Of a DNA stretch of 18,297 nt, positions 1-12,389 are shown piece by piece. The notes under the pieces were generated by a model that worked only from the letters and a program-made list of their open reading frames with translations, was not told the origin of the DNA and did no database searches. The translations under genes were made by a program, and so were the position numbers. The stretch spans positions 1 through 18,297 of the forward strand of contig NJBF01000053.1 of assembly GCA_003144275.1 (NCBI GenBank), given 5' to 3'. Every line of letters starts with the position of its first letter. Within the stretch, counting starts at the first letter, position 1. The stretch is from Candidatus Heimdallarchaeota archaeon B3_Heim. GTDB taxonomy: Archaea > Asgardarchaeota > Heimdallarchaeia > Hodarchaeales > Hodarchaeaceae.

Positions 1-1322
1 CCTCCACAACATCGCGCGTGAGATCTATTGAACGTCATTTCTGTTAATTGAAGATCTGGTATTGCTTCCAAGATTTCACGAGGTGTATTATAAATACCAC
101 AGTGTCTTCCAAGAGAACATGGATCGTGGTATGTTATTTTTGCATTTAGAGGATTCAATCTCAATTCCTTAGTTTCTATCTTGTTTTTAATATATTGCGT
201 TGAGTGGAGAACTTCACACGGAATATTGAGATTGAAAATCTCTGGAAAAAGTTTCGTGAAGGTGTAAAAACATCCTGCACAAGGTGTAATTACCTTTTCA
301 ACCCCTGTTTTTTCAATTTTTTGAATAATTTCCTTCGCAATTATTTTTGCTTCATTCCACAGACCTGATGAAAATAAAACATATCCACAACATCCCTCAT
401 CTTCCCCTAGCATTGTAAAATTAGCTTGAACCTCTTTTAAAATGGTATAAAATGCTAAGGCGGTTTTAGGAGTACGATTTGATACCATACATCCAACCCA
501 ATAGAGAATATCTGGATTTTCGGAGAAATTCTTGTTAGTAATGTTGTTTAGCCAAGTAAAGCGTTTTTCACTTGGAGTTGCAGCTGGATCTCCAGTTCTT
601 GAAATATTGAAAGCAGTTGTCTGAAATATGTCAGGTCCTAATTTTTTTTCAGCAATTATATTTCTTACGTGAAAAATTGCTTTATGAAAATCTGATTGCT
701 TAGAGCTTTCACTAAAACAGTTCCCACACTCACTACAGGTGTATAGAATATCAATAAGCTTTTTTGAGGTTTCTAAATCCCCCTTCATTAATCCTCTGAT
801 CAAAAGCATTCTCCCCTTGGCTGACCATGTTTCAATTCCGTTACGAGAACGAGTTATTGTACAATATCTTCCACTAACATTATTTTGTAAGCACTTAGTT
901 AAGTTACTCTCTGAGATCAATATTTGTACTGCTAACGTAATGTTGTTTTGGACACTATGGGTATAATTCTGAATCTTATGTTTAAGCAGTGTCTTTCTTT
1001 TTCTTGGTTTTTCTGATCCGCTGCTGATTTCAGGTATTTTTGTATTATCTAGCAAAATTGATATTTTTGAAGGATCTCTCAATAAGAATGAATCTGATGT
1101 ATTTTTTCTATATATCGTGATATAATTTCTTCTCCCCCATTCTAATAATTTTGTAGAAGCAGTGAATTGATCATCCCTTACTATAATGTCAAACATTGGA
1201 TGAACTGGTTTTGTATAAATGTTTTCAAATGAATAAACATAGCGATCTTCAATATCAGTTAATACTTGAACCTCTGTGAATAATTGGCTCAATTCCTTAA
1301 CGAGCTCGCTTATAGATCTCAT
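1..1322 (-). CDS. HdrD/GlcF-like (Fe-S)-binding oxidoreductase with CCG domains; runs off the left edge (partial, 440 codons visible)
   Basis: Not in the ORF track because no stop lies in the window. Manual translation from ATG at 1322 is open to base 1: MRSISELVKELSQLF...ETWSAKGRMLLIRGLMKG...YTCSECGNC...LYWVGC...EGCCG...TPCAGC...TYHDPCSLGR...RCCGG. This is the ferredoxin-like domain plus two-CCG-domain layout of HdrD/GlcF proteins. Confidence 0.9.
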   Translation of the reverse strand, partial: MRSISELVKELSQLFTEVQVLTDIEDRYVYSFENIYTKPVHPMFDIIVRDDQFTASTKLLEWGRRNYITIYRKNTSDSFLLRDPSKISILLDNTKIPEISSGSEKPRKRKTLLKHKIQNYTHSVQNNITLAVQILISESNLTKCLQNNVSGRYCTITRSRNGIETWSAKGRMLLIRGLMKGDLETSKKLIDILYTCSECGNCFSESSKQSDFHKAIFHVRNIIAEKKLGPDIFQTTAFNISRTGDPAATPSEKRFTWLNNITNKNFSENPDILYWVGCMVSNRTPKTALAFYTILKEVQANFTMLGEDEGCCGYVLFSSGLWNEAKIIAKEIIQKIEKTGVEKVITPCAGCFYTFTKLFPEIFNLNIPCEVLHSTQYIKNKIETKELRLNPLNAKITYHDPCSLGRHCGIYNTPREILEAIPDLQLTEMTFNRSHARCCG

Positions 1323-1603: not shown

Positions 1604-2368
1604 TTGAGTGATGAATTAATTTTAGTCGAAAAAAAAGACTTTATTGGGAAAATTACCTTTAACAACGGCCCATTAAATATTTTGAATATTGAAATGATGG
1701 AACAGATCAATAAGACACTTGATAAGTTCCTAGAAGAAAATTCTCTCAAAGTGATTGTGTTTGATCACCTTGGAAAAGCATTCTCTGCAGGAGTCGATAT
1801 TGGGGAACACATGGGGGATTCTGTTAAAAAAATGTTAGAAGTATTCCATGGTATGTTTAAAAGGTTAAATCATATGAAAATCCCTACAGTCGCTTGTGTA
1901 AAGGGAGCTGCATATGGTGGGGGATGTGAGGTAGCTGCTTTCTGTGATATTGTATTAGCTTCAGAGAAAGCGAAATTTGGTAATCCAGAAATAAAAGTAG
2001 GAGTCTTTCCTCCTGTCTCAGCAGTCATATTTCCTTCTATACTTGGAGAGAAAAAAGCATTTGAACTTATATTACAAGGAGAGATTATCAGAGCGGAAGA
2101 AGCACACAGAATAGGCCTAGTCAATCAAGTATTCCCCTTAGAATCTTATGAACAAGATGTATCAGAATTTCTTGAAAGATTTAACAAATTAAGTACAATT
2201 GTGTTACAATATTCTAAAAAAGCTGTTAAAATAGGAATATCTGACTTTGAGACCAAATTAGACGAAGTAGAAGCTCTTTATCTCAATGAACTTATGGCAA
2301 CAACTGATGCGAATGAGGGGTTACAAGCTTTTATTGAGAAACGTCCACCTCAATGGCAGAATCGATAA
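1604..2368 (+). CDS. dch: Cyclohexa-1,5-diene-1-carbonyl-CoA hydratase (Dch/BamR-like, crotonase family), 254 aa
   Basis: Crotonase motifs AFSAGVDIGEH, GGGCE and GNPEIKVGVFPP with both catalytic Glu. The C-terminus EALYLNELMATTDANEGLQAFIEKRPPQWQNR resembles Dch/BamR. Directly upstream of had, with oah in the same cluster. Confidence 0.85.
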   Translation: MSDELILVEKKDFIGKITFNNGPLNILNIEMMEQINKTLDKFLEENSLKVIVFDHLGKAFSAGVDIGEHMGDSVKKMLEVFHGMFKRLNHMKIPTVACVKGAAYGGGCEVAAFCDIVLASEKAKFGNPEIKVGVFPPVSAVIFPSILGEKKAFELILQGEIIRAEEAHRIGLVNQVFPLESYEQDVSEFLERFNKLSTIVLQYSKKAVKIGISDFETKLDEVEALYLNELMATTDANEGLQAFIEKRPPQWQNR

Positions 2369-2435: not shown

Positions 2436-3482
2436 ATGAGAGCTGCTGTTTTTGAAAAAATAAGAGAACCATTAAAAATTGTGAATGATTATCTCTCTCC
2501 TACTATTGATGGGAGAAATGGACAAGTACTAGTGGATATCACAGCCTGTGGTGTTTGTCATACCGATTTAGGATTTCTTGATCATGGAGTACCTACAGGT
2601 AAATCTCCACCATTAATTTTAGGACACGAAATGGCTGGACGAGTACATGAAATCAGTGAGGATGTTACAAATTTTAAGAGAGGAGACCATGTCCTTATTC
2701 CCGCAGTCATTTCTTGTGGTACCTGTTTTCAATGTAGGACAGGACGGGAAAACATATGTTCAAATCAAGTTTTTTTCGGAAGTAATGTTGATGGAGGGTT
2801 TGCAGAACAGATTATGGTTCCAGCGAAAGACATATTCCATCTTCCAGTAGAAATACCTTTGGAAGAAGGATGTATTATAGCTGATGCAGTGTCTACTCCA
2901 TATCATGCTGTTAAAAATCGAGGTCAAGTCAGACCAGGTGACTGGGCTGTTGTTTTTGGGTGTGGTGGGATAGGACTCAACGTGGTCCAGAATATTAAAG
3001 CTGCAGGTGGATTACCTATCGCAGTTGACATTATCTCAGAAAAACTAGATATTGCTAAAAAACTTGGAGCTGTTAAAACACTTTCAGCAAAGGAATTAGA
3101 TGACCGTGGTATAGTAGGAGCAATCCGAAAAGCTACAGGTGGAGGTGCAGACATTGCTTTTGAAGCAATTGGAAATCCTACGACATTTAAGCAAGCTTTT
3201 AATAGCTTACGAACTGGTGGAAGATTAGTTGCTGTAGGTTATTCTCCAAAACGATGGGATGGCTTTGATATTGGTCGTGTGATGTTTCGTGAAATGGAAA
3301 TAATGGGAAGTTTGGGGTGTCGCACCGTAGATTACCCACGTATCATAGAATTAGTTAAAAATGGTACACTTGTGGTTAAACCACTTGTAACAGGAAAATA
3401 TCCCCTTTCCGAAATAAATGAAGGATTTGATGTCATGCGACGAGGTGAAGGAGTACGAACTGTTGTTTTATGTCAAGAATAA
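2436..3482 (+). CDS. had: 6-hydroxycyclohex-1-ene-1-carbonyl-CoA dehydrogenase (Had/BamQ-like Zn-dependent MDR), 348 aa
   Basis: ACGVCHTD and LILGHE (catalytic Zn), CGTCFQCRTGRENIC (structural Zn), IADAVSTPYHAVKNR, and GCGGIG...VDI (NAD-type). DHGVPT...PPLILGHE and PAKDIFHLPVEIPLEEG are typical of Had/BamQ. Adjacent to dch. Confidence 0.88.
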   Translation: MRAAVFEKIREPLKIVNDYLSPTIDGRNGQVLVDITACGVCHTDLGFLDHGVPTGKSPPLILGHEMAGRVHEISEDVTNFKRGDHVLIPAVISCGTCFQCRTGRENICSNQVFFGSNVDGGFAEQIMVPAKDIFHLPVEIPLEEGCIIADAVSTPYHAVKNRGQVRPGDWAVVFGCGGIGLNVVQNIKAAGGLPIAVDIISEKLDIAKKLGAVKTLSAKELDDRGIVGAIRKATGGGADIAFEAIGNPTTFKQAFNSLRTGGRLVAVGYSPKRWDGFDIGRVMFREMEIMGSLGCRTVDYPRIIELVKNGTLVVKPLVTGKYPLSEINEGFDVMRRGEGVRTVVLCQE

Positions 3483-3577: not shown

Positions 3578-4720
3578 ATGAAAATCGGTATTGTTGGTAT
3601 TGGTCATAGCAAGTTTGGTAGACGTGATGATGTAACAGTTCAAGAACTTGCATTTGAGCCATTTGTTGAAGCGCTTATTGACTCAGGACTTCAGCGAGAA
3701 GAGATTGACGCTACAATTATTGGGGCATCTCCCGTTTATATGACCCAAAGAAGTATCGCAGGCCCCGTCACAGAATACTTGGGATTGAATCCGCAACCTG
3801 TTTGGTTGACTGAAGCTGCTTGTAGTAGTTCCGCATCAGCTCTAAGAACCGCGTATGCATTAATTAAATCTAAAATGCATAACACTGTCTTAGTTCTTGG
3901 TGTTCAAAAGATGTTAGAAAATCCAACATCAGAAATTCTAAAGATTATGGGACGAACAGGAGATGTTCAATGGGAAGCTCCCTATGGAACAACCTTTGCT
4001 AATTATTATGCAATGTATGCGAATGCTCATATGACGAAATATGGGACATTGTCGGAACAGCTTGCTGAAGTAGCGGTAAAGAATCACTATTATGGGTCGA
4101 AGAATCGTAAAGCCATGTTCCAAAAAGAAATTACGGTTGAAAAAGTTCTTGAATCACGGATTATTTCCTCACCTTTACATCTTTATGATTGCTGTGCGAA
4201 TGCGGATGGTTCAGCAGCTCTGATAGTATCGAATGAGGAAATATCCAAAAAAATATCTGATACTCCTATCTGGGTTGAAGGTTTAGGTGCAGCAACAGCT
4301 CCGTTTTCCCTTCTCACTCGACCCGAACTGAGTACCTTAACCAGTGCTGTTGAGGCCTCACAGGCCGCGTATACGCAGGCAAAGATTGATCCAACAAATA
4401 TTGATGTAGCAGAAGTTCATGATTGTTTCACTATAGCAGAAATCATGGCTTACGAAGATTTAGGTTTTACAGAGCGAGGCAAAGGTGGAGAGTTTGTGGA
4501 GAATGCTTACATTGGTGGTAAAGTGCCAATCAATGTCGATGGAGGCCTTAAAGCAAAAGGACATCCAGTGGGAGCCACAGGGTGTTCTCAAGTCGTTGGA
4601 ATTGTCCAACAACTTCGTGGAGAAGCAGGACAATGCCAAGTGGATGGAGCAGAGAAGGGTTTAACCCACAATGTTGGTGGTCATGGCCAGTATTGTCTCG
4701 TCCATGTCTTTTCGAGGTGA
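3578..4720 (+). CDS. SCP2/archaeal-type thiolase (acetyl-CoA acetyltransferase), 380 aa
   Basis: EAACSSS (nucleophile Cys), EVHDCFT (HDCF loop, 4418-4429), GGLKAKGHPVGATG and THNVGG. Immediately followed by a DUF35 domain, the usual partner of this thiolase class. Confidence 0.9.
   Translation: MKIGIVGIGHSKFGRRDDVTVQELAFEPFVEALIDSGLQREEIDATIIGASPVYMTQRSIAGPVTEYLGLNPQPVWLTEAACSSSASALRTAYALIKSKMHNTVLVLGVQKMLENPTSEILKIMGRTGDVQWEAPYGTTFANYYAMYANAHMTKYGTLSEQLAEVAVKNHYYGSKNRKAMFQKEITVEKVLESRIISSPLHLYDCCANADGSAALIVSNEEISKKISDTPIWVEGLGAATAPFSLLTRPELSTLTSAVEASQAAYTQAKIDPTNIDVAEVHDCFTIAEIMAYEDLGFTERGKGGEFVENAYIGGKVPINVDGGLKAKGHPVGATGCSQVVGIVQQLRGEAGQCQVDGAEKGLTHNVGGHGQYCLVHVFSR
4714..4720 (+). promoter_or_regulatory. 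Shine-Dalgarno-like GAGGTGA overlapping the thiolase stop codon
   Basis: GAGGTGA includes the TGA stop at 4718-4720 and lies 4 nt before ATG 4725. It supports 4725 as the true start and translational coupling. Confidence 0.6.
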
Positions 4721-4724
4721 AGTG

Positions 4725-5936
4725 ATGAAGCAATTTGGATATCGCGATTATATCTCCCAATCCAAGGTAGGAGTACAGCTTTTAAAGTCTTTAAAAGAGG
4801 GGAAATTAGAGGGAACTCAATGTACAAAATGTAATATTCCTTATTATCCCCCTAGAGCCTATTGCCGTGAATGTTTATCCGATGGAAATATAATAGGTCT
4901 TATTTTTTCAGGTAAAGGAACGATACTATCTTTTTCAGAAGTTCAGGTTCCTCCCGCAGGTTTTGAACGTTTTGCTCCATATACAGTTTGTATCGTGGAA
5001 TTAGATGAAGGAGGCCGACTTGTTGGTTGGATTGATCCAGGATCCCAATCTCTGAAAATTGGAGATAAGGTCCAAGTAAAGCCCGAAGTGATTGAGGGAG
5101 ATCGAGTAGTTTATAAAATTACAAGAGGAACATCTCCAGATGTCGATGTAAAGGCTGAAAAAGTAGCTCAAAATCTTGTAACAGGGAGTAACAAACTTCA
5201 GGGTAAGGTTGCAATAATAACTGGAGCAGGAAAGGGGATTGGGCGTGAAATTGCTTTAAAATATGCACGAGAAGGAGCTATGGTTATTGTAGCAGCTAGA
5301 ACGCTCAGTGATATCGAAACGGTGGCAAAGGAAATCAAACAATCTGGAGGAGAAGCAACTCCTATCATATGTGATGTTGGAAATGTAGAAAGTGTTCAAC
5401 AATTAATTATGAAAACTCTAGAAAAATATGAAACAATTGACATCCTTGTGAACAACGCAGGGATTTCTAAGAGTGCCCTAATTAGTAAAATGACTGATGA
5501 TCTTTGGAATTCAGTTATTAATGTGAATTTGAAGGGTACTTTCAATTGTATTCGTGCTGTTATTCCTCATTTCTCAACAAAACGACCTCTTGGAGGGAAA
5601 ATTATTAACTTCACGTCAACCGCGGCAAAATACGGTAACGTGGGTCAAAGTGCTTATAGTGCATCAAAATGGGGTGTTATCGCCCTTTCTAAATCTGCTG
5701 CACGCGAACTAGCCACTTACAAAGTGAATGTAAACTGTATCATGCCTGGTTATATAGAAACAGCCATGACAGCAGACACTCCATCTGTTTATAAAGAGCA
5801 AACCATAGCTCAAATTCCTCAAATGCGTATTGGTTACCCCGAAGACGTAGCGAAGGTTGCTGTATTTCTAGCCTCTTCCGATTCGGATTATATGACGGGT
5901 TCAATCCTTCAGGTCGACGGTGGATTGAGGATGTAA
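4725..5936 (+). CDS. Fusion of DUF35 (Zn-ribbon plus OB-fold) and a FabG-like short-chain dehydrogenase/3-ketoacyl-CoA reductase, 403 aa
   Basis: N-terminal CTKC...YYPPRAYCREC Zn ribbon and OB fold (GKGTILSFS, PYTVCIVELDEGGRL, LKIGDKV), a linker of about 20 aa, then an SDR with TGAGKGIG, NNAG, S...YSASK and PGYIET, all in one frame. Start moved from 4671 (inside the thiolase gene) to ATG 4725. Confidence 0.88.
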   Translation: MKQFGYRDYISQSKVGVQLLKSLKEGKLEGTQCTKCNIPYYPPRAYCRECLSDGNIIGLIFSGKGTILSFSEVQVPPAGFERFAPYTVCIVELDEGGRLVGWIDPGSQSLKIGDKVQVKPEVIEGDRVVYKITRGTSPDVDVKAEKVAQNLVTGSNKLQGKVAIITGAGKGIGREIALKYAREGAMVIVAARTLSDIETVAKEIKQSGGEATPIICDVGNVESVQQLIMKTLEKYETIDILVNNAGISKSALISKMTDDLWNSVINVNLKGTFNCIRAVIPHFSTKRPLGGKIINFTSTAAKYGNVGQSAYSASKWGVIALSKSAARELATYKVNVNCIMPGYIETAMTADTPSVYKEQTIAQIPQMRIGYPEDVAKVAVFLASSDSDYMTGSILQVDGGLRM

Positions 5937-5979
5937 TTATCTTTAAGTTTTCAGAAGAAAGACGATTTAATGAATTTGT

Positions 5980-7179
5980 CTATTCATCAGGAGTATATGG
6001 AGGAAGTTCATATCTTAACTTAGCAGATTTTCGGTATCCTAGAATGTATGATCCTTGGATTAATTTTTGAATTTCATTAGTTCCTTCAAGAATCGTATTA
6101 GCACGTGCATTTCTCCAGTATCTTTCAACTGGAAAGTCTCCACTATAACCCATTGCACCATGGATTTGGATTGCACGATTCGCAGCATCAGAAGCATGAT
6201 TTGTAGCTTGCCATTTTGCCATAGCTGTTTCTCTAGTATTTCTAATTCCTTGGTTTTTTAACCACGCGGCTTTATAGACTAATAACTGAGATTGATCATA
6301 GCCTGCTTGCATATAGGCGATATGTTCTTGAATTAATTGTAATTTTCCAATCTCTTGACCAAATGCTTTGCGTTCATGAGAATATTTCACAGCTGCTTCA
6401 ATACTAGCTCTTATAACACCACAAGCACCAGCTGCAACTGTAAACCTACCACTATCTAACGCTGTCATGGCTATTTTGAATCCTTCTTGCTCCTTCCCAA
6501 GGAGATTTTCAGTAGGGATTCTAACATCCTGCAGTATAATTTCACCAGTATCACCTGTCCTAACCCCTAATTTATCATGAAACGAACTTGTAGAAAGACC
6601 TTGCGATTCTTTTTCTACAATGAAAGCCGAAATGTCTTTATAGCCCTTTTCCTTCCCTAATCGTGCAAAAATTAAGAAATGATCTGCTACATCAACTAAA
6701 CTAATCCATTGTTTTGCTCCATTAAGAACAAACTCATCTCCTTCTCGTACTGCTTTCGTTTGAAGATTAGCAACATCTGATCCACATCCTGGCTCCGTAA
6801 GACCGTAAGCTCCAATTTTAGTTCCTTTTCCTTGAGGTAGAAGAAATTTTTCTTTTTGTTCTTTTGTTCCCCATTGGTACATTGTTAAACTCGACAAAGC
6901 CGTATGGACTGATAATATTACACGTAACGAGGTGTCTACTCGTTCCAATTCTTCACATGCAAGAGCTAAGGCCACATAATCAAGGCCTGCGCCTCCCCAC
7001 TTCTCTGGAATGCATACTCCAAGTATCCCCAATTTTCCCATTAATGGAAGCACTTTTTTGTATACAGATTTTTGTCGTTTATCATAATCGCTAATAATTG
7101 GAGAGACTTCACGCTCTGCAAAGTCTCGAACACTATCACGTAGCATAATATGTTCTTCTGAAAGTGAAAAATCGATCAT
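5980..7179 (-). CDS. Acyl-CoA dehydrogenase, glutaryl-CoA dehydrogenase-like, 399 aa
   Basis: YGLTEPGCGSD, NGAKQWIS, ERKAFGQEIG, QIHGAMGY and ILEGTNEIQ (catalytic Glu365). ELERVDTSLRVILSVH keeps the Arg that binds the distal carboxylate in glutaryl-CoA dehydrogenases. Start set at ATG 7179 (MIDFSL) rather than TTG 7194. Substrate is inferred. Confidence 0.8.
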   Translation of the reverse strand: MIDFSLSEEHIMLRDSVRDFAEREVSPIISDYDKRQKSVYKKVLPLMGKLGILGVCIPEKWGGAGLDYVALALACEELERVDTSLRVILSVHTALSSLTMYQWGTKEQKEKFLLPQGKGTKIGAYGLTEPGCGSDVANLQTKAVREGDEFVLNGAKQWISLVDVADHFLIFARLGKEKGYKDISAFIVEKESQGLSTSSFHDKLGVRTGDTGEIILQDVRIPTENLLGKEQEGFKIAMTALDSGRFTVAAGACGVIRASIEAAVKYSHERKAFGQEIGKLQLIQEHIAYMQAGYDQSQLLVYKAAWLKNQGIRNTRETAMAKWQATNHASDAANRAIQIHGAMGYSGDFPVERYWRNARANTILEGTNEIQKLIQGSYILGYRKSAKLRYELPPYTPDE

Positions 7180-7333
7180 ACAGTAACCATCCAAGTTTTT
7201 TATTTGATATTTTGAGCTGTTATACGGAATTTTCGTTTCTATATAGAGTAGTTGAGTTGGATTGTTGTAGTAATATAATTTTTATGATGAACTAAATAAC
7301 GTGTATACTATCACGATCAGAATCAATAGAAGG

Positions 7334-8452
7334 ATGAATGCTTTGAAAGATCATAATCTTTGGAAAGAGGAATATTTTGGAACGGATCCTCCGAATATAA
7401 CGTATGAGCTAAAGCCACTGGTCAATCCAAACGGTGATACGGTGGATAACCTATTTTCAGCATGGATTATACTCAATAATCCTCAACAACTGAACTCTTA
7501 TACAACAAAAATGGTGAAAGGAGTGATAGCAGGATTTTCTCGCGCATCAATGGATCGTAATGTAGTAACAGTTGTTTTTACGGGTGCAGGTGACCGTGCA
7601 TTCTGTACAGGAGGTAATACAAAGGAATACGCTGAATATTATTCTGGGAAGCCCAACGAATACGGACTTTATATGGATTTGTTTAATGCGATGGTAGATG
7701 CTATCCTGAACTGTAAAAAACCTGTCTTATGTCGTACCAATGGAATACGAGTTGCAGGAGGGCAGGAAATCGGTATGGCTGCTGATTTAACTATTTCAGC
7801 TGATACAGCTATATATGGACAAGCTGGCCCTCGTCATGGATCTGCTCCGGACGGTGGTTCGACTGATTTTCTTCCATGGATGCTTTCTATTGAAGACGCG
7901 ATGTGGAACTGCATTTCATGTGAGTTATGGAGTGCATATAAAGTGAAGCAATTAGGAATGATAACTGAAGTCGTTCCTGTGCTAAAAAGAGATGATAAAT
8001 TCATCCGAAATCCCACCATTATAACTGACAGATATATTCACGATGGAGAAATCGTTTATGGAGAATTCCTTTCTGGAAAGGAGTATAAAGATGCGAGAGA
8101 GGTTTTGAAAAGCTGTGAAACTGATTTTTCACTTCTTGATAAGGCAATTGATGATATAATATGGAAGTTCGCGAACCTATTTCCTGGATGTTTAATGAAA
8201 TCCATCGATGGAATCCGAATGAAGAAAAAATTCTTTTGGGATCAAACAAAACTTGCCAATCGTCATTGGTTATCTGCTAATATGTCTACTGAAGCATTAT
8301 TAGGTTTTCGTGCATTTAATGAGAGGAAGTTAACTGGAAAGGACACTATTGACTTCATCCAATATCGTCAGCTAATCGCTAACGCACACCCCTTCGATCA
8401 AAATCTTATTGATACAGTTTTACCTAAACCATTGAAAAATGAGGACTCTTAA
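7334..8452 (+). CDS. oah: 6-oxocyclohex-1-ene-1-carbonyl-CoA hydrolase (Oah/BamA, ring-opening), 372 aa
   Basis: Diagnostic stretches NSYTTKMVKG, AFCTGGNTKEYAEYY, GGQEIGMAAD, GQAGPRHGSAPDGGSTDFLP and GFRAFNE match Oah/BamA. Start set at ATG 7334 (MNALKDHNL) rather than GTG 7301. Confidence 0.95.
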   Translation: MNALKDHNLWKEEYFGTDPPNITYELKPLVNPNGDTVDNLFSAWIILNNPQQLNSYTTKMVKGVIAGFSRASMDRNVVTVVFTGAGDRAFCTGGNTKEYAEYYSGKPNEYGLYMDLFNAMVDAILNCKKPVLCRTNGIRVAGGQEIGMAADLTISADTAIYGQAGPRHGSAPDGGSTDFLPWMLSIEDAMWNCISCELWSAYKVKQLGMITEVVPVLKRDDKFIRNPTIITDRYIHDGEIVYGEFLSGKEYKDAREVLKSCETDFSLLDKAIDDIIWKFANLFPGCLMKSIDGIRMKKKFFWDQTKLANRHWLSANMSTEALLGFRAFNERKLTGKDTIDFIQYRQLIANAHPFDQNLIDTVLPKPLKNEDS

Positions 8453-9660
8453 TGCAATTTTCAAACACTTTCATTCCCTATGGATGCTATTGGAGCTCTC
8501 CGTTTGTACGTTGGCAGGGGAGCTTTGCTAACCAAAACTCTATACAACTCGCTGCGGAAGTTGCTACTCTAGCTCTAAATAAACGAAAGATACAACCTGA
8601 AATCTTTAATTCAATATATTTAGGGATTACTATTCCTCAAGTACATAGTTTTTATGGTCAAACTTGGTTATCTGGTCTTCTTGGAGCTCCCAATATTACA
8701 GGGCCGATGATTGCACAAGCATGTGCCACTTCTACACGAGTAATCGCCAATGCAGCATCTGAAATCGAAACACGAAGTAACCCCAATCATACCATACTAG
8801 CCATTACTTGTGATCGAACAAGCAATGGTCCTCATATCCTCTATCCTGCTCCTTTAGCACCTGGTGGAAAACCGAATACTGAAAATTGGGTCTGGGATAA
8901 TTTTAGCTTCGATCCATATGCAAAAAATCCAATGATTCAAACTGCAGAGAATGTATCGAGAGATGCAGGAATAACACGAGAAGCCCAAGAGGAAGCTACA
9001 TTACTCCGTTACAAACAATATGACCAAGCATTAAAGAATGACGCAGAATTTCTCAGAAAATTCATGATCTCACCCATTGAGGTAAAGTCTGGAAGAAAAA
9101 TTATTGCTACAGTTGAAAAAGATGAAGGAATTTACCCTACTTCAAGAGAAGGATTAGCTAAACTAAAACCAGTGTCAAAAGATGGTTCAGTAACTTTTGG
9201 GACACAAACTCATCCAGCAGATGGAAATTGTGGATTGATTCTTACAACTCGGGAAAAAGCCAATGAAATTTCTCTAAATTCAGATTATGAGATTCAGATC
9301 CTCTCTTTTGGTCAGGCTCGTAGCAAGAAAGGATTTATGCCCATGGCTCCAGTACCTGCTTCCCAAAAAGCACTTGAATCAGCTAAACTCTCAGTTGGTG
9401 ATATTACTGCTACTAAGTTACATAATCCTTTTGCTGTTAATGATGTCTATTTTAGTGAGGAAATGGGAATTTCACTTACCTCAATAAATAACTATGGTTC
9501 ATCACTTGTATGGGGGCACCCTCAAGCCCCAACTGGGATGCGTTTACTTATTGAACTAATCGAAGAACTAGTGATAAAGAAAGGGGGTCACGGTCTTTTT
9601 ACAGGCTGTTCTGCCGGTGATTCTGCAGCAGCAGTCGTCATCAAAGTGAATTCGGTTTAA
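8452..9660 (+). CDS. Thiolase of the family found in anaerobic aromatic-degradation clusters (candidate 3-oxopimeloyl-CoA thiolase), 402 aa
   Basis: IPYGCYWSSPFVRWQG N-terminus, AQACATS (Cys), DRTSNGPH, HNPF loop (9421-9432), WGHPQAPTG (His) and GCSAGD (second Cys). The ATG overlaps the oah stop (TAATG at 8450-8454). Confidence 0.85.
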   Translation: MQFSNTFIPYGCYWSSPFVRWQGSFANQNSIQLAAEVATLALNKRKIQPEIFNSIYLGITIPQVHSFYGQTWLSGLLGAPNITGPMIAQACATSTRVIANAASEIETRSNPNHTILAITCDRTSNGPHILYPAPLAPGGKPNTENWVWDNFSFDPYAKNPMIQTAENVSRDAGITREAQEEATLLRYKQYDQALKNDAEFLRKFMISPIEVKSGRKIIATVEKDEGIYPTSREGLAKLKPVSKDGSVTFGTQTHPADGNCGLILTTREKANEISLNSDYEIQILSFGQARSKKGFMPMAPVPASQKALESAKLSVGDITATKLHNPFAVNDVYFSEEMGISLTSINNYGSSLVWGHPQAPTGMRLLIELIEELVIKKGGHGLFTGCSAGDSAAAVVIKVNSV

Positions 9661-9718: not shown

Positions 9719-10609
9719 TTAGAAAGACCGAGGCGTTGGAGGATTTGTGGAATAATCGTAAAATCCCATTCCTGTTTTCCTTCCAAGATGATTTGCACGC
9801 ACCATTTTTCGAAGTAATGTTGGAACACGGTACTTTGAATCTTGAAACTCTGTAACGAAATAATCAGCTATGAAAAGTGTTGTATCTAGACCTACAAAAT
9901 CTAACAGAGTAAATGGACCCATAGGATGATTTAAACCTAAAGTTATTGCTTTATCCATATCTTCAACCGTTGTTACTCCTTCTTGTAATGTAAATATTGC
10001 CTCAAGGAAGAATGGTAGCAGGAGACGATTAACTGCGAACCCAGGTGCTTCATTAACGAGTACAGTCTCTTTTCCCAATTTCTGGGAAAGTTCATCAATG
10101 AACTTATATGTTTCATCTGAAGTTTCATATCCTTTAATTATTTCAACCAATCGCATCACAGGTACAGGATTGAAAAAATGCATACCAATGAACTTATCTG
10201 GACGTTTTGTTGCTGCAGCCATGTCAGTAATAGATATTGATGATGTATTAGAAGCAAAAACCACGTTTGGATCACAGATTTCTTCCAATTCTGTATAAAC
10301 TTTACGTTTTAAGTCCCTATTTTCAATTATTGCCTCAATAACCACATCAGCTCCTTCTGTGGCTTCTTTCAAATCGGTAGTTCCTTTTATTCTACCTAGA
10401 ATTTCGTTCATTTGATCTTGAGTCATTTTTCCTTTTTTAACCCCACGTGACAAATTTTTATTAATCATAGACAGACCTTTTTCTATGAAATGGTCTTCAA
10501 TATCCCTCATGGCAACTTGATACCCAGCTTGAGCACAGACTTGAGCTATACCATTACCCATTAATCCTGCTCCTATAACACATATTTTTTTCACATTATC
10601 AATCTTCAT
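9719..10609 (-). CDS. hbd: 3-hydroxybutyryl-CoA / 3-hydroxyacyl-CoA dehydrogenase (NAD-dependent), 296 aa
   Basis: VIGAGLMGNGIAQ...RDIE (NAD-type Asp), FASNTSSIS, GMHFFNPVPVMRLVEII, PGFAVNRLL, HPMGPFTLLDFVGLD and LGRKTGMGFY. Start set at ATG 10609 (MKIDNVKK); the 20-aa extension in the ORF track is AT-rich upstream sequence. Confidence 0.88.
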   Translation of the reverse strand: MKIDNVKKICVIGAGLMGNGIAQVCAQAGYQVAMRDIEDHFIEKGLSMINKNLSRGVKKGKMTQDQMNEILGRIKGTTDLKEATEGADVVIEAIIENRDLKRKVYTELEEICDPNVVFASNTSSISITDMAAATKRPDKFIGMHFFNPVPVMRLVEIIKGYETSDETYKFIDELSQKLGKETVLVNEAPGFAVNRLLLPFFLEAIFTLQEGVTTVEDMDKAITLGLNHPMGPFTLLDFVGLDTTLFIADYFVTEFQDSKYRVPTLLRKMVRANHLGRKTGMGFYDYSTNPPTPRSF

Positions 10610-10799
10610 TTGATGAACACCGTTAAATATAATGATGGTAGAAAGTAATAAATAATTATAGAAGAGCATTTTTAGAATTTTTGTTTATTTCAAAATCGAA
10701 AGGTTGTATGAAGTGTTATAAATTCAAACTAGCAAGAAATACAAAATTATTTTACTCTAAACCTAATGAAATATCAAGAAGAACCAAGATACACATAAA

Positions 10800-12389
10800 T
10801 TACAGTTTTTGAGAAATTAAATTATTGTATCGCTCACGTAGGATTCTGTGAATGATTTTACCAGAGCCTGTTCTTGGTACATCTTCGTAATCAATAAAAA
10901 AGACCTTTTTTGGAACTTTGAATCTAGCTAAATGCTCTTTACTATGATTCATTATATCCTCCGCTAAATCTTCGGTAGCTTCAAAATTTGGTGCCAGAAC
11001 ACAAATAACGGTAACAGACTCTCCCCATTTATAATCCTGTAATCCTATCACTGCACATTCAAGTACAGCAGGCATTGCATTAATAGTTTTTTGTACTTCA
11101 GATGGAAAAACATGTTCTCCACCCGTAATTATCATATTCGCCTTTCTATCAACGAGATATAAATATCCATCCTCATCTCTTTTAGCCATATCTCCTGCAC
11201 TGAAAAAACCATCTTCCATACTCTCTAATGTTTTTTCTGGTAACTTATGGTATTCTGTGTGTTGCATAGGACCACGAGAAAATAATTCACCGATTTCTCC
11301 ATCAAGTATTAGCTTTCGTGAATTGGGATCCAAAATTTTGATATTATCTGTTCCAATACATTCCAAACCTATTGAACCAGCTTTTTTGAATTGATCTTCT
11401 GGTCTCAAAATTGTTACGAGGCCTGCTTCGGTAGAACCATATGCTTCAAAAAGCCTTACATCCTTAAATAACGCCATAACTTCATATTTCATCTTTTTTG
11501 TTGCAGGAGCTGAGGATGTCAAAAGTGATCGGATGGAACTTAGATCATATTTCTTCAGGATTTCATCTGGAAGACACAGGATTAAATTATAATGGGTGGG
11601 GATCATACTGGTAAACGTGATTTTTTCCTGTTCAAAAATTTGTAATACATCTTCAGGGTTAAATTGATATTCAAGATGAACATAGACACTTGCACCGATA
11701 TATGTGAAAACAAAAGCGTAAAACGTAGAATTAACATGGGACAAAGGCATTAAGACTAATCCGTAATCATCTGGTGTGAAGGAGAATTCTGCTGCATTGA
11801 TTAGAAAAAAGGATATATAGGAACGATGGGAGCGAACAACACCCTTAGGTTTGCCAGTTGTGCCAGAGGTATATAGAAGAATCCATGTATCTTCGGAGTC
11901 TACCTGAATTAAAGGATATTCATCTTCACCTTCTTCTACAATATCCTTGTAATAACTCCAGTTTTCTAAAACTGGAATTTCCCCAATCAAAACATGTTGA
12001 AGATTATCTAGTCCGAATTCAATGACCAAATCCCAACTCTCAATTGTTAGGTCATAATATCTATCTTGAACCATGACCATTTTTACTTCAGCATTTCGCA
12101 CGATCCAATAAAGATCAGTTGGTAGAAGTCGGAAATTCAGGGGAACAATAATTAGACCTGCTTTTGCAGCTGCGCCGTAAATTTCCATAAATTCAACACA
12201 GTTATTTAGTAGAACCGCTATTTTATCTCCTTTCTTCAAACCTCTTTTGAGTAAACCGTTCGCTAACATATTAGTTCTTATATCATAATCTCTAAAGGTA
12301 AGTGAGCGGTTTTTATCCTTAACTGCTAATTTATTGGGATATTTAAGAGCATTAACCCGAAGAATTTCTCCCAGATGTAACCAATTCAT
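10800..12389 (-). CDS. AMP-forming acyl-CoA synthetase/ligase, substrate unknown, 529 aa
   Basis: LYTSGTTGKPKG P-loop, YGSTEAG, GDMA, DRKANMIITGGEHVFPSEV and FKVPKKV...PRTGSGKI. It lacks the WLYSSGSTG and FFAYGLGN signatures of benzoate-CoA ligases as I recall them. Confidence 0.88.
   Translation of the reverse strand: MNWLHLGEILRVNALKYPNKLAVKDKNRSLTFRDYDIRTNMLANGLLKRGLKKGDKIAVLLNNCVEFMEIYGAAAKAGLIIVPLNFRLLPTDLYWIVRNAEVKMVMVQDRYYDLTIESWDLVIEFGLDNLQHVLIGEIPVLENWSYYKDIVEEGEDEYPLIQVDSEDTWILLYTSGTTGKPKGVVRSHRSYISFFLINAAEFSFTPDDYGLVLMPLSHVNSTFYAFVFTYIGASVYVHLEYQFNPEDVLQIFEQEKITFTSMIPTHYNLILCLPDEILKKYDLSSIRSLLTSSAPATKKMKYEVMALFKDVRLFEAYGSTEAGLVTILRPEDQFKKAGSIGLECIGTDNIKILDPNSRKLILDGEIGELFSRGPMQHTEYHKLPEKTLESMEDGFFSAGDMAKRDEDGYLYLVDRKANMIITGGEHVFPSEVQKTINAMPAVLECAVIGLQDYKWGESVTVICVLAPNFEATEDLAEDIMNHSKEHLARFKVPKKVFFIDYEDVPRTGSGKIIHRILRERYNNLISQKL

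Follow-up and report, generated by a model that had tools for sequence, protein, structure and literature searches.

A thiolase gene and the gene directly downstream of it, which joins a DUF35 domain to an SDR, probably encode the 3-hydroxypimeloyl-CoA dehydrogenase/3-oxopimeloyl-CoA thiolase complex of the lower benzoyl-CoA pathway. Such a complex would be a fused version of the thiolase assemblies that DUF35 is known to mediate in Sulfolobus and methanogens. Both genes lie in the window, by which we mean the whole 18,297 nt stretch of Heimdallarchaeota DNA analysed here, and they provide candidates for two anaerobic benzoyl-CoA steps whose definition is poor in strict anaerobes and lacking in archaea.

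We propose that thiolase (3578-4720) and fusion (4725-5936) are translated together and assemble into a single complex, in which the N-terminal DUF35 would clamp the thiolase in the manner of the free DUF35 proteins of solved complexes, and a flexible tether of about 27 residues would keep the FabG-like SDR beside it. After ring opening by Oah, the SDR would interconvert 3-hydroxypimeloyl-CoA and 3-oxopimeloyl-CoA, and the thiolase would interconvert 3-oxopimeloyl-CoA plus CoA with glutaryl-CoA plus acetyl-CoA; one particle would both make and consume the labile 3-oxoacyl-CoA. A 4:4 particle is plausible, given that SDRs usually assemble as tetramers and thiolases as dimers.

Anatomy of the fusion gene

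The annotated features of the window are as follows.

3..1322, minus strand: CCG-domain (HdrD/GlcF-like) protein, divergent from the cluster (Pfam CCG)
1604..2368, plus strand: crotonase-family hydratase; best NCBIfam match dienoyl-CoA hydratase (Dch; TIGR03189, 184.7 bits, below the cut-off of 292.5)
2436..3482, plus strand: Zn-dependent MDR dehydrogenase; best match Had (TIGR03201, 219.4 bits, below the cut-off of 338.65)
3578..4720, plus strand: SCP2/archaeal-type thiolase (KT), 380 aa (Pfam Thiolase_N/Thiolase_C_1; NCBIfam PRK06064)
4714..4720, plus strand: Shine-Dalgarno-like GAGGTGA, read from the sequence, overlapping the thiolase stop and 5-11 nt before ATG 4725
4725..5936, plus strand: DUF35-linker-SDR fusion gene, 403 aa plus stop (translation, Pfam, homologue clusters and a junction-spanning contig)
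4725..5114, plus strand: DUF35 domain (residues 1-130), comprising N-terminal arm, Zn ribbon and OB fold and predicted to form the face that binds the thiolase (Pfam; PDB 6ESQ_E, E 1.7e-16)
5115..5195, plus strand: linker (residues 131-157), 27 aa, charged/polar, variable in sequence with its length kept
5196..5933, plus strand: classical SDR, FabG-like (Pfam adh_short, 208.8 bits)
5980..7194, minus strand: acyl-CoA dehydrogenase (NCBIfam, below cut-offs)
7301..8452, plus strand: Oah (TIGR03200, 567.3 bits against a cut-off of 464.45)
8452..9660, plus strand: second thiolase, classical (type II-like), whose start overlaps the Oah stop (Pfam Thiolase_N/Thiolase_C; TIGR01930, 185.8 bits, below cut-off)
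9719..10669, minus strand: NAD-type 3-hydroxybutyryl-CoA dehydrogenase (Hbd; NF004474, 416.1 bits against a cut-off of 408)
10800..12389, minus strand: AMP-forming acyl-CoA ligase (Pfam AMP-binding)

The initial annotation had described a single open reading frame holding a complete DUF35, a short linker and a complete SDR, and translation and Pfam bear this out: zf-ChsH2 covers residues 22-53 (38.7 bits, cut-off 23.2), OB_ChsH2_C residues 62-118 (55.0 bits, cut-off 27.1) and adh_short residues 161-352. All four Zn-ribbon ligands (Cys33, Cys36, Cys47 and Cys50) are present; across the 20 homologues of alignment A1 the first three are invariant and Cys50 is missing in a few. Linker length stays within 24-29 aa among homologues at a mean column identity of 0.39, against 0.73 for the DUF35 and 0.81 for the SDR, and linker residues 137-154 have an AF2 pLDDT below 50. 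The start 4 nt past the thiolase stop and the Shine-Dalgarno site over that stop, both noted originally, are likewise legible in the DNA (stop TGA at 4718-4720, 4 nt spacer, ATG at 4725-4727). An in-frame ATG lies upstream at 4671; the homologues start at MKQFGY, which places the conserved start at ATG 4725.

We attach practically no probability to the fusion being an assembly or frameshift artefact that joins two genes, and we found no support for that reading. The junction, which the initial annotation wanted confirmed with reads, is crossed without indels in independent data: aligned over 4403-5500, a 3913-nt contig of another marine-sediment run differs by 56 substitutions and has no gaps, and four sequencing runs list no indels. 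The fusion is free of internal stops across 15 GTDB species genomes. The search of domain architectures that had also been suggested found the same DUF35-SDR layout in about 70 protein clusters (53-79% identity), on dozens of contigs from differing sources. Two seemingly unfused Asgard SDRs downstream of the thiolase in NCBI MAGs, P0074 and P0075, proved to have mis-called starts, the open frames (5142-6362 of locus L023 and 1568-2800 of locus L024) including the DUF35 part. Among the best 150 of 2163 DUF35 matches, P0047 is the one representative with the DUF35-SDR architecture, and fusions with more distant DUF35 domains, beyond those 150, may have arisen independently. A scan of the whole contig collection with alignment A1 returned mostly bacterial FabG, the 80 loci kept spanning only residues ~129-403 and nearly all beginning at ~150; comparison with the ESM Atlas returned generic SDR clusters only. 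In the literature we found no published description of a DUF35-SDR fusion beside a thiolase.

The thiolase partner and known DUF35 complexes

The thiolase scores 467.7 bits against NCBIfam PRK06064 (cut-off 420), has a Cys81 nucleophile, an HDCF motif (281-284) and His329, and has relatives in the PDB (7YVY, 6ESQ_A and 7PXP_C). The KT clade to which it belongs is linked to Oah in two phyla. The thiolase lies directly upstream of the fusion in each of the eight loci examined (the window, L004-L008, L023 and L024), in L023 and L024 after correction of the mis-called start, and the gap is 4-18 nt in the six loci with both gene ends annotated (the window and L004-L008).

The thiolase-DUF35 pairing put forward in the initial annotation is mirrored in a predicted complex, which docks the DUF35 part on the thiolase with an ipSAE of 0.79 (three runs, 0.79-0.80; controls, best of three, 0.00). 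Of 80 solved complexes 58 attain this level, as do 2 of 110 mismatched pairs; as similar DUF35-thiolase complexes are already solved, the score shows likeness rather than binding, and the result may be a memory of 6ET9, 7PXP or 6OK1. The runs share at least 97% of contacts, with a partner pLDDT of 86, and all confident contacts lie within fusion residues 1-130. Interface columns of the DUF35 have a mean identity of 0.82, against 0.69 for the remaining domain. Two segments with low confidence in the monomer model, the N-terminal arm (residues 1-13) and the loop at 76-79, nevertheless belong to the modelled interface.

The DUF35-bridged ketothiolase/reductase assembly of Sulfolobus to which the initial annotation referred does exist: the 'archaeal FAS complex' of Sulfolobus acidocaldarius comprises a KT/DUF35 pair (Saci_1121/1120), the SDR ketoacyl-CoA reductase Saci_1104 and a MaoC dehydratase (bioRxiv 10.1101/2024.07.05.601840). 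The shared features are an SCP2/archaeal-type thiolase and a DUF35 that recruits, or here would recruit, an SDR for 3-oxoacyl-CoA, the SDR being of NADP(H) type, which here is read at motif level only. Unlike the three separate proteins of Sulfolobus, DUF35 and SDR are one chain here; whereas the Sulfolobus complex serves fatty-acid synthesis, our genes neighbour and co-occur with genes for Oah, Dch-like, Had-like and Bzd proteins; and instead of a MaoC partner, this genome yielded only a 30.5-bit fragment (39 profile positions matched, within a 67-aa frame of contig C45), which is not convincing. The same paper describes many KT/DUF35 pairs in Asgard genomes, and no fusion (10.1101/2024.07.05.601840).

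Among solved structures, the thiolase/HMG-CoA synthase/DUF35 complex of Methanothermococcus thermolithotrophicus (6ESQ, 6ET9) contains the DUF35 most similar to ours (E 1.7e-16) and a close thiolase (E 1.3e-64). There too DUF35 bridges the thiolase to the next pathway enzyme, but that partner is HMG-CoA synthase and is unfused. The HMG-CoA synthase of our genome sits on a contig other than the window, and contig C43 carries a second KT/DUF35 pair with greater similarity to archaeal acetoacetyl-CoA thiolases. In ChsH1-ChsH2(DUF35)-Ltp2 of Mycobacterium (6OK1) and Shy-Sal of Proteobacteria (PMC11321319), which set a precedent, DUF35 is fused to a neighbouring pathway enzyme and docks it onto a thiolase-fold protein. 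Our fusion, whose DUF35 is N-terminal and followed by an SDR, differs in that theirs is C-terminal to a MaoC hydratase; their partner is a Cys-less aldolase, whereas the window thiolase keeps Cys81, HDCF and His329. BbsAB, the benzoylsuccinyl-CoA thiolase of anaerobic toluene degradation (7PXP), is also a thiolase with a Zn-ribbon DUF35 subunit in an anaerobic aromatic pathway, and BbsB is a detectable relative of the window thiolase (E 4e-47), but BbsA has no second enzyme domain, and substrate and pathway step differ. The same 3-hydroxypimelyl-CoA dehydrogenase and 3-oxopimelyl-CoA thiolase reactions, likened here by description, have been proposed for AabC/AabD of Aromatoleum sp. CIB (PMC9795900) and for Gmet_2057-2059, an adjacent, benzoate-induced ECH-thiolase-SDR trio of Geobacter metallireducens (PMC1924859). 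Unlike in the window, no DUF35 gene is listed beside the thiolase-SDR pair of Geobacter, and no fusion is reported for either system.

Association with Oah and the split counterpart

The initial annotation had placed the fusion in a ring-cleavage operon, and the Oah gene 1.4 kb downstream, above its cut-off (567 versus 464 bits), narrows that setting to a lower benzoyl-CoA cluster. Elsewhere in the genome, contig C46 carries BzdN (494 bits) and BzdO (681 bits); a Bcr-type reductase was rejected, TIGR02263 reaching only 133 bits, with bzd-type models above their cut-offs instead. Hbd and the type II thiolase of the window fit the C4 steps, so that the C7 steps remain for the SDR/KT pair. Counting against the lower benzoyl-CoA reading, the Dch-like and Had-like proteins fall below equivalog cut-offs. 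The hydratase shares 50-53% identity with the one that flanks the Thermoplasmatota operons described below; the MDR, whose translation has catalytic (Cys38/His63/Glu64) and structural (Cys94/97/100/108) Zn ligands, is only 31% identical to the MDR of one of these loci, L030. The acyl-CoA dehydrogenase matches glutaryl-CoA dehydrogenase and acryloyl-CoA reductase models, the latter as top match and both below cut-off (NF045552, 352 bits versus 470; NF042972, 369.3 versus 640). The CCG-domain neighbour recurs in L004, L005 and L007, and shares 30% identity with the L026 CCG protein.

The fusion was found in 15 of 400 Asgard genomes, and Oah in the same 15 plus two incomplete genomes. Within the window's genus, 14 genomes have fusion and Oah, seven neither, one Oah only and none the fusion only; the two genes may be neighbours, lie 13-129 kb from each other within one contig, or occupy separate contigs. 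As the co-occurring genomes belong largely to one genus, they represent few independent events. Among 221 genomes of a second phylum, that of a Methanomassiliicoccales-labelled record (G400), Oah occurs in 12, the KT clade in 16 and both in 11; the five with the KT clade and no Oah count against the C7 reading. Three genomes with Oah and neither fusion nor KT clade yielded no P0002-type thiolase at E 1e-100 (G160, 70% complete; G031, 76% complete; G429, only 1.4 Mb).

The Rosetta-stone argument advanced in the initial annotation has gained its split counterpart, in the form of Oah-SDR-thiolase-DUF35 operons in Thermoplasmatota. Locus L031 has Oah, SDR, KT and DUF35 in this order as separate genes with gaps of 1-14 nt, and in L030 the same series is followed by BzdN (482 bits, cut-off 454), BzdO (613, 449) and BzdQ (432, 380). 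L026 reads ECH-SDR-KT-DUF35, and its flanks, as far as they were read, contain no Oah; in the L027 genome Oah is located elsewhere. The KTs of split loci are 60-67% identical to the window thiolase, and their DUF35 proteins are 33-35% identical to the window DUF35, versus 21-23% for the genome's own DUF35 paralogues. The fusion-paired KTs form one clade (SH-aLRT 100) that nests inside the split-form KTs, in a tree with two very long paralogue outgroups. The fused SDR domains also form one clade (SH-aLRT 99), and are only 36-43% identical to the split-operon SDRs; as the SDR tree does not resolve the relation among the fused clade, split-operon SDRs and bacterial FabG, orthology of the fused and split-operon SDR parts is not established.

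Fusion and split counterpart make a natural Rosetta-stone pair, which predicts that thiolase, DUF35 and SDR assemble directly beyond Sulfolobus as well; with the fused form, purification and structure solution of the complex are expected to be easy. The comparison also brings to light a compact Oah-SDR-thiolase-DUF35 operon in Thermoplasmatota. A caution follows for Asgard KT/DUF35 pairs, which, though many, should not be taken as evidence of fatty-acid synthesis: the pair of the fusion tracks aromatic-ring catabolism, and only those 15 of the 400 genomes searched have it.

Cofactor type, direction and alternative functions

The SDR has the motifs TGAGKGIG and AART, with the NADP-type basic residues K170 and R192, and a catalytic tetrad (N268, S298, Y311 and K315) that is invariant in alignment A1. 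In the 20 aligned members R192, after beta-2, is also invariant, and position 170, in the Gly motif, is always K or R. The domain misses the FabG equivalog cut-offs (NF004198, 275.5 bits versus 296; TIGR01830, 267.2 versus 297.75) and passes only the subfamily model NF009466 (235.2 versus 222), so we call it FabG-like rather than FabG; among unfused relatives it is closest to bacterial FabG encoded in fab operons (49-52% identity). Judged from the residues, the NADP-type motif and FabG kinship suggest a reductive, (R)-specific enzyme, unusual in catabolism. To call it a 'reductase' is to assume a direction, one that the NADP-type motif favours but the catabolic context does not. This conflict of motif and context turns the direction and stereochemistry of the steps after ring opening into a concrete question that can be tested.

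The cassette might be a Sulfolobus-type module for ACP-independent fatty-acid synthesis or reverse beta-oxidation, in which the thiolase condenses acyl-CoA with acetyl-CoA, the SDR reduces with NADPH, the crotonase dehydrates and the MDR reduces enoyl-CoA. The NADP-type motif and FabG likeness fit such a module, as do the ECH-MDR-KT-fusion order of the window, L004 and L005, the Thermoplasmata locus L026 with no Oah in the flanks read, and the NADPH-dependent, (R)-specific SDR ketoacyl-CoA reductase bound by the Sulfolobus KT/DUF35 (10.1101/2024.07.05.601840). It is nevertheless unlikely, given that the fusion occurs in just 15 of 400 Asgard genomes and in no searched genome without Oah, that the split form shares an operon with Oah and adjoins BzdNOQ, that Oah lies elsewhere in the L027 genome, that the MDR has full Zn sites and best matches Had rather than an enoyl reductase, and that MaoC is represented by just the 30.5-bit fragment. 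Alternatively, the same complex could act on the same C7 substrates reductively, its NADPH-dependent SDR pulling the condensation of glutaryl-CoA and acetyl-CoA and feeding pimeloyl-CoA synthesis or a reversed benzoyl-CoA pathway with alicyclic or aromatic acids as electron sink, a use that has reportedly been made of such acids by Syntrophus aciditrophicus. The NADP-type fingerprint in 20 of 20 aligned members points this way, as do the DUF35 complexes described to date, which pull thiolase condensation (HMG-CoA synthase, 6ESQ/6ET9; Sulfolobus FAS), and the match, below cut-off, of the acyl-CoA dehydrogenase to the NCBIfam model for Desulfococcus-type glutaryl-CoA dehydrogenase. We consider it rather unlikely, because the acyl-CoA ligase and full downstream beta-oxidation gene set of the window indicate degradation, and genome and split operon encode an ATP-dependent Bzd-type benzoyl-CoA reductase. 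An ATP-hydrolysing reductase is not expected to run in reverse. More generally, and again with low probability, the tethered NADPH-type FabG-like domain could make the unit a condensing machine whose in-cis reductase pulls the unfavourable Claisen condensation of glutaryl-CoA, or another acyl-CoA, with acetyl-CoA; some Heimdall/Hod-group Asgard archaea would then have an ACP-free chain-elongation module that supplies either an alicyclic/aromatic-acid pathway run in reverse or the synthesis of fatty acids or pimelate.

The fusion might also serve only equal expression or stability, with no channelling and an SDR substrate that is not the thiolase's, for example an alicyclic 2-hydroxyacyl-CoA as for BadH. 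BadH of the Rhodopseudomonas route is likewise an SDR, and the docking model names no confident SDR-thiolase contact, the unnamed residues being uncertain rather than excluded. Yet we think this decidedly unlikely and favour the 3-hydroxypimeloyl-CoA dehydrogenase/3-oxopimeloyl-CoA thiolase complex. The identification of the SDR as BadH (2-hydroxycyclohexanecarboxyl-CoA dehydrogenase) was rejected (TIGR03206, 175.6 bits versus a cut-off of 431.2), the ring-opening enzyme is of Oah type rather than BadI type (567 versus 108 bits), and the linker is held to 24-29 aa while its sequence is free. In the split form, SDR-KT-DUF35 comes straight after Oah, and this order places the SDR between Oah and the thiolase.

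The DUF35-SDR fusion and its predicted thiolase partner

The fusion is the last member of a run of four genes in the window:

1604-2368, + strand: crotonase, first of the run
2436-3482, + strand: Zn-dependent dehydrogenase (MDR), second of the run
3578-4720, + strand: thiolase KT, third of the run
4725-5936, + strand: DUF35-SDR fusion, fourth of the run

The sequence GAGGTGA at 4714-4720 overlaps the KT stop codon (TGA, 4718-4720), and the ATG that follows lies at 4725. An upstream in-frame ATG at 4671 is likewise open, but more than 40 homologues, about 403 aa in length, begin with the residues encoded from 4725, which was therefore taken as the start. Three Pfam domains exceed the gathering cut-off in the fusion:

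residues 22-53: ChsH2-type Zn ribbon
residues 62-118: DUF35 OB fold
residues 161-352: full short-chain dehydrogenase (SDR)

KT is a thiolase of the SCP2/archaeal type (PRK06064, 467.7 bits against a cut-off of 420) that carries Cys81, an HDCF motif and His329. The sequence and the Pfam matches bear out the coordinates of the initial annotation, and its description of KT, a 4-nt spacing, an overlapping Shine-Dalgarno site and a single DUF35-SDR reading frame.

The DUF35-SDR protein is a real, conserved gene fusion. The junction, for which a check by independent sequence had been proposed, is intact: an unrelated marine-sediment run yielded a 3913-nt contig that spans 4403-5500 with 56 substitutions and no gaps, and in four runs not one indel was listed. 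About 70 protein clusters of 53-79% identity share the architecture, and all the named clusters are Asgard metagenome-assembled genomes (MAGs; Hodarchaeales, Heimdall-, Thor-, Odin-, Hermod- and Kari- labels). When the search was scored on fusion residues 1-150 only, 49 proteins were returned, all 49 with DUF35 plus SDR. When the DUF35 part served as query, an exhaustive HMMER search yielded 2163 relatives; among the best 150 of these, just one 50%-identity representative had the DUF35-SDR architecture, and the nearest free DUF35 was 50% identical to the DUF35 part of the fusion.

Two proteins that appeared to be unfused SDRs (P0074 and P0075) were rejected as such, their starts being mis-called and their frames extending upstream through a complete DUF35. 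Their genes, in two NCBI MAGs (L023:5142-6362 and L024:1568-2800), are annotated only from an internal Met, as SDRs of 255-264 aa, and architecture counts made from such mis-started records overlook the DUF35 part. The HMMER search also returned P0160 (376 aa), in which an N-terminal DUF35 (Zn ribbon and OB fold) is joined to phage tail-sheath domains, and which represents an unusual fusion, if not a chimeric gene call.

Conservation was scored on an alignment of 20 fusion sequences, in which the Zn-ribbon residues Cys33, Cys36 and Cys47, the SDR tetrad N268, S298, Y311 and K315, and the Arg192-Thr193 pair after beta-2 are invariant, and Gly-motif position 170 is always Lys or Arg. In classical SDRs, basic residues at the sites of 170 and Arg192 favour NADP(H) as cofactor. 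Every aligned member has a linker (residues 131-157) of 24-29 aa. Mean column identity is only 0.39 there, compared with 0.73 in DUF35 and 0.81 in the SDR, and the AlphaFold monomer model gives the linker a pLDDT below 50. The fusion may be pictured as a pair of folded domains joined by a flexible tether whose length is constrained.

The KT gene lies immediately upstream of the fusion in all eight loci read. In six of them, the window and L004-L008, the two annotated gene ends are separated by a gap of 4-18 nt; in L023 and L024 it immediately precedes the corrected open frame of the fusion. A complex model of KT with the full-length fusion gave an ipSAE of 0.79-0.80 in three runs (best of three controls, 0.00), a mark attained by 58 of 80 solved complexes and by 2 of 110 mismatched pairs, with contact agreement between runs of at least 97% and a partner pLDDT of 86. 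On the fusion side, the confident contacts all fall within residues 1-130 (N-terminal arm 1-13, loop 68-80, and 97-102), and on the KT side they involve 118-153, 194-200 and 245-251. Conservation averages 0.82 at the fusion contact positions, higher than the 0.69 of the remaining DUF35 domain, and the N-terminal arm and contact loop are disordered in the monomer model. Because DUF35-thiolase complexes have already been solved (6ESQ/6ET9, 7PXP, 6OK1), the predicted docking of the DUF35 part on KT is a likeness and not a proof. The model names no contact between SDR and thiolase, a result to be read as uncertain rather than negative.

Split counterparts and association with the ring-opening hydrolase

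The nearest non-Asgard relatives of KT belong to Thermoplasmatota (59-67% identity), and the four loci read there carry SDR and KT as separate genes, most with a free DUF35 and two with Oah, the ring-opening hydrolase of the lower benzoyl-CoA pathway:

L026, closed Thermoplasmata genome: crotonase (ECH)-SDR-KT-DUF35, a set of four genes preceded by FAD-oxidase and CCG genes
L031:6182-9656 (G404:C4): Oah-SDR-KT-DUF35, gaps 1-14 nt, MDR gene divergent
L030:2646-11208 (G479:C5): Oah-SDR-KT-DUF35, GNAT, BzdN, BzdO, BzdP-like ATPase, BzdQ; crotonase and MDR divergent
L027, closed Methanomassiliicoccales genome: ECH-SDR-KT, full Oah elsewhere in the genome

The benzoyl-CoA reductase proteins BzdN, BzdO and BzdQ of L030 exceed their equivalog cut-offs. 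These operons give concrete form to the Rosetta-stone argument that the initial annotation had built on the fusion.

The DUF35 part of the fusion is 33-35% identical to the DUF35s of the split operons, as against only 21-23% to both other DUF35s encoded in its genome, and the window crotonase shares 50-53% identity with its split-locus counterparts. Identity of the SDR part to the split-operon SDRs reaches only 36-43%, lower than its 49-52% to bacterial FabG genes located in plsX-fabH-fabD-fabG-acpP operons. In maximum-likelihood trees, a single clade (SH-aLRT 100) takes in all Asgard-labelled KTs and every KT that is known to lie before a fusion; with the root placed on two very long paralogue branches, it nests among the split-form KTs. 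The fused SDR domains likewise form one clade (SH-aLRT 99), which the tree joins firmly neither to split-operon SDRs nor to FabG. The simplest history would be a single fusion event in an Asgard lineage that started from an older, Oah-linked SDR/KT/DUF35 module; the SDR may have been kept from that module or exchanged.

Of the 400 genomes covered in the window's phylum, 15 have the fusion (14 of the 22 members of the window's own genus, and one of another family), and none has it without Oah. Oah is found in the same 15 genomes and in G160 (70% complete), and G031 (76% complete) has it in truncated form. Neither gene is present in seven members of the genus. The two genes are adjacent, 13-129 kb apart (129 kb in the closed genome CP070695.1) or on different contigs. 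Of 221 genomes sampled from the phylum to which a closed, Methanomassiliicoccales-labelled genome (G400) belongs, 12 have Oah, 16 the KT clade and 11 both. These counts overstate the statistics, since related genomes are not independent samples and linked genes disappear jointly; still, the association of the module with Oah recurs in two phyla.

A proposed role in the lower benzoyl-CoA pathway

The ring-cleavage setting that had been described for the fusion is upheld by a bona fide Oah in the window (TIGR03200, 567 bits against 464). Also encoded in the window are an NAD-type 3-hydroxybutyryl-CoA dehydrogenase (Hbd; 416 bits against 408), a second thiolase of the classical type, an acyl-CoA ligase and an acyl-CoA dehydrogenase that matches the glutaryl-CoA dehydrogenase model below its cut-off. 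The best NCBIfam matches of the crotonase and the MDR, both below cut-off, are the dienoyl-CoA hydratase (Dch) and dehydrogenase (Had) models, and the catalytic and structural Zn sites of the MDR are complete. Contrary to the impression from the window alone, the ring-reducing entry step exists in this organism, as BzdN (494 bits) and BzdO (681 bits) are encoded on another contig of the genome (G000:C46:4038-6475; L032, L034).

A CCG-domain (HdrD/GlcF-like) protein is encoded at 3-1322 (- strand) in the window, and recurs beside the module in Asgard loci (L004:5150-6682, L005:4329-5864 and L007:2596-4083); in Thermoplasmata (L026:1349-3925) an FAD-linked oxidase comes before it. A block of acyl-CoA dehydrogenase, ETF-beta, ferredoxin-fused ETF-alpha and acyl-CoA dehydrogenase genes (L004:13530-17290, L005:16509-20972, L006:4576-9034) follows the KT-fusion pair within a few kb in these three relatives and is absent from the window.

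The lower benzoyl-CoA pathway requires two dehydrogenase/thiolase pairs, one for the C7 steps (3-hydroxypimeloyl-CoA to glutaryl-CoA and acetyl-CoA) and one for the C4 steps, and the window holds exactly two. Hbd and the type II thiolase would fit the C4 steps, and the SDR/KT pair was assigned to C7 because it directly follows Oah in the split operons. This predicted pathway assignment is well supported, and we consider it fairly probable, taken as a whole, that the SDR/KT pair serves the C7 steps. Holding the SDR and KT active sites in one particle would be sensible in either direction. Thiolysis pulls the unfavourable oxidation of a 3-hydroxyacyl-CoA by NAD(P)+, whereas in reverse it is reduction that pulls an unfavourable condensation. 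The same principle is at work in the thiolase/HMG-CoA synthase complex and in bacterial beta-oxidation complexes of the FadBA type. What a catabolic role would chiefly leave unexplained is that the SDR is NADP-type and FabG-like, and this keeps alive the reductive alternatives, a reversed pathway or chain elongation, which even together we regard as rather unlikely.

The fusion with KT would be a variant of already known DUF35-thiolase complexes. The closest characterized system is that of Sulfolobus acidocaldarius, in which, in line with the initial annotation, a KT/DUF35 pair binds an NADPH-dependent SDR ketoacyl-CoA reductase, together with a MaoC dehydratase; the same study counted Asgard KT/DUF35 pairs and mentioned no fusion (10.1101/2024.07.05.601840). 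In ChsH2 and Shy, DUF35 is likewise fused to a neighbouring pathway enzyme, but the partner is a MaoC hydratase (6OK1; PMC11321319), and BbsAB of anaerobic toluene degradation is also a DUF35-thiolase (7PXP). The reactions proposed here for SDR/KT are assigned in Aromatoleum to AabC/AabD (PMC9795900), and are plausibly performed in Geobacter by the benzoate-induced thiolase-SDR pair Gmet_2058/2059, alongside which no DUF35 gene is listed (PMC1924859). For Hermodarchaeota, generic beta-oxidation genes have been given for the C7 dehydrogenase/thiolase steps (PMC8163825). A full-text literature search found no published description of a DUF35-SDR fusion or an Oah-SDR-KT-DUF35 operon.

Other thiolase/DUF35 pairs of the genome

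A second thiolase/DUF35 pair is encoded at L009:5465-7005 (G000:C43). Its thiolase is the genome's closest to archaeal acetoacetyl-CoA thiolases (7YVY, 300 bits), and has Pro at the position of the nucleophilic Cys (NGPASG versus AACASG), so that it may be catalytically dead or repurposed. The third pair (L010:5111-7054, G000:C47; 422 aa and 220 aa) adjoins a UbiA prenyltransferase gene; its thiolase-like protein is without the nucleophilic Cys in the alignment, and its DUF35 protein has a long N-terminal extension. The sole HMG-CoA synthase-like match in the genome (L011; G000:C19:51843-52898, - strand; 199.6 bits, below the cut-off of 244) lies within a 560-aa open frame and adjoins no thiolase/DUF35 pair.
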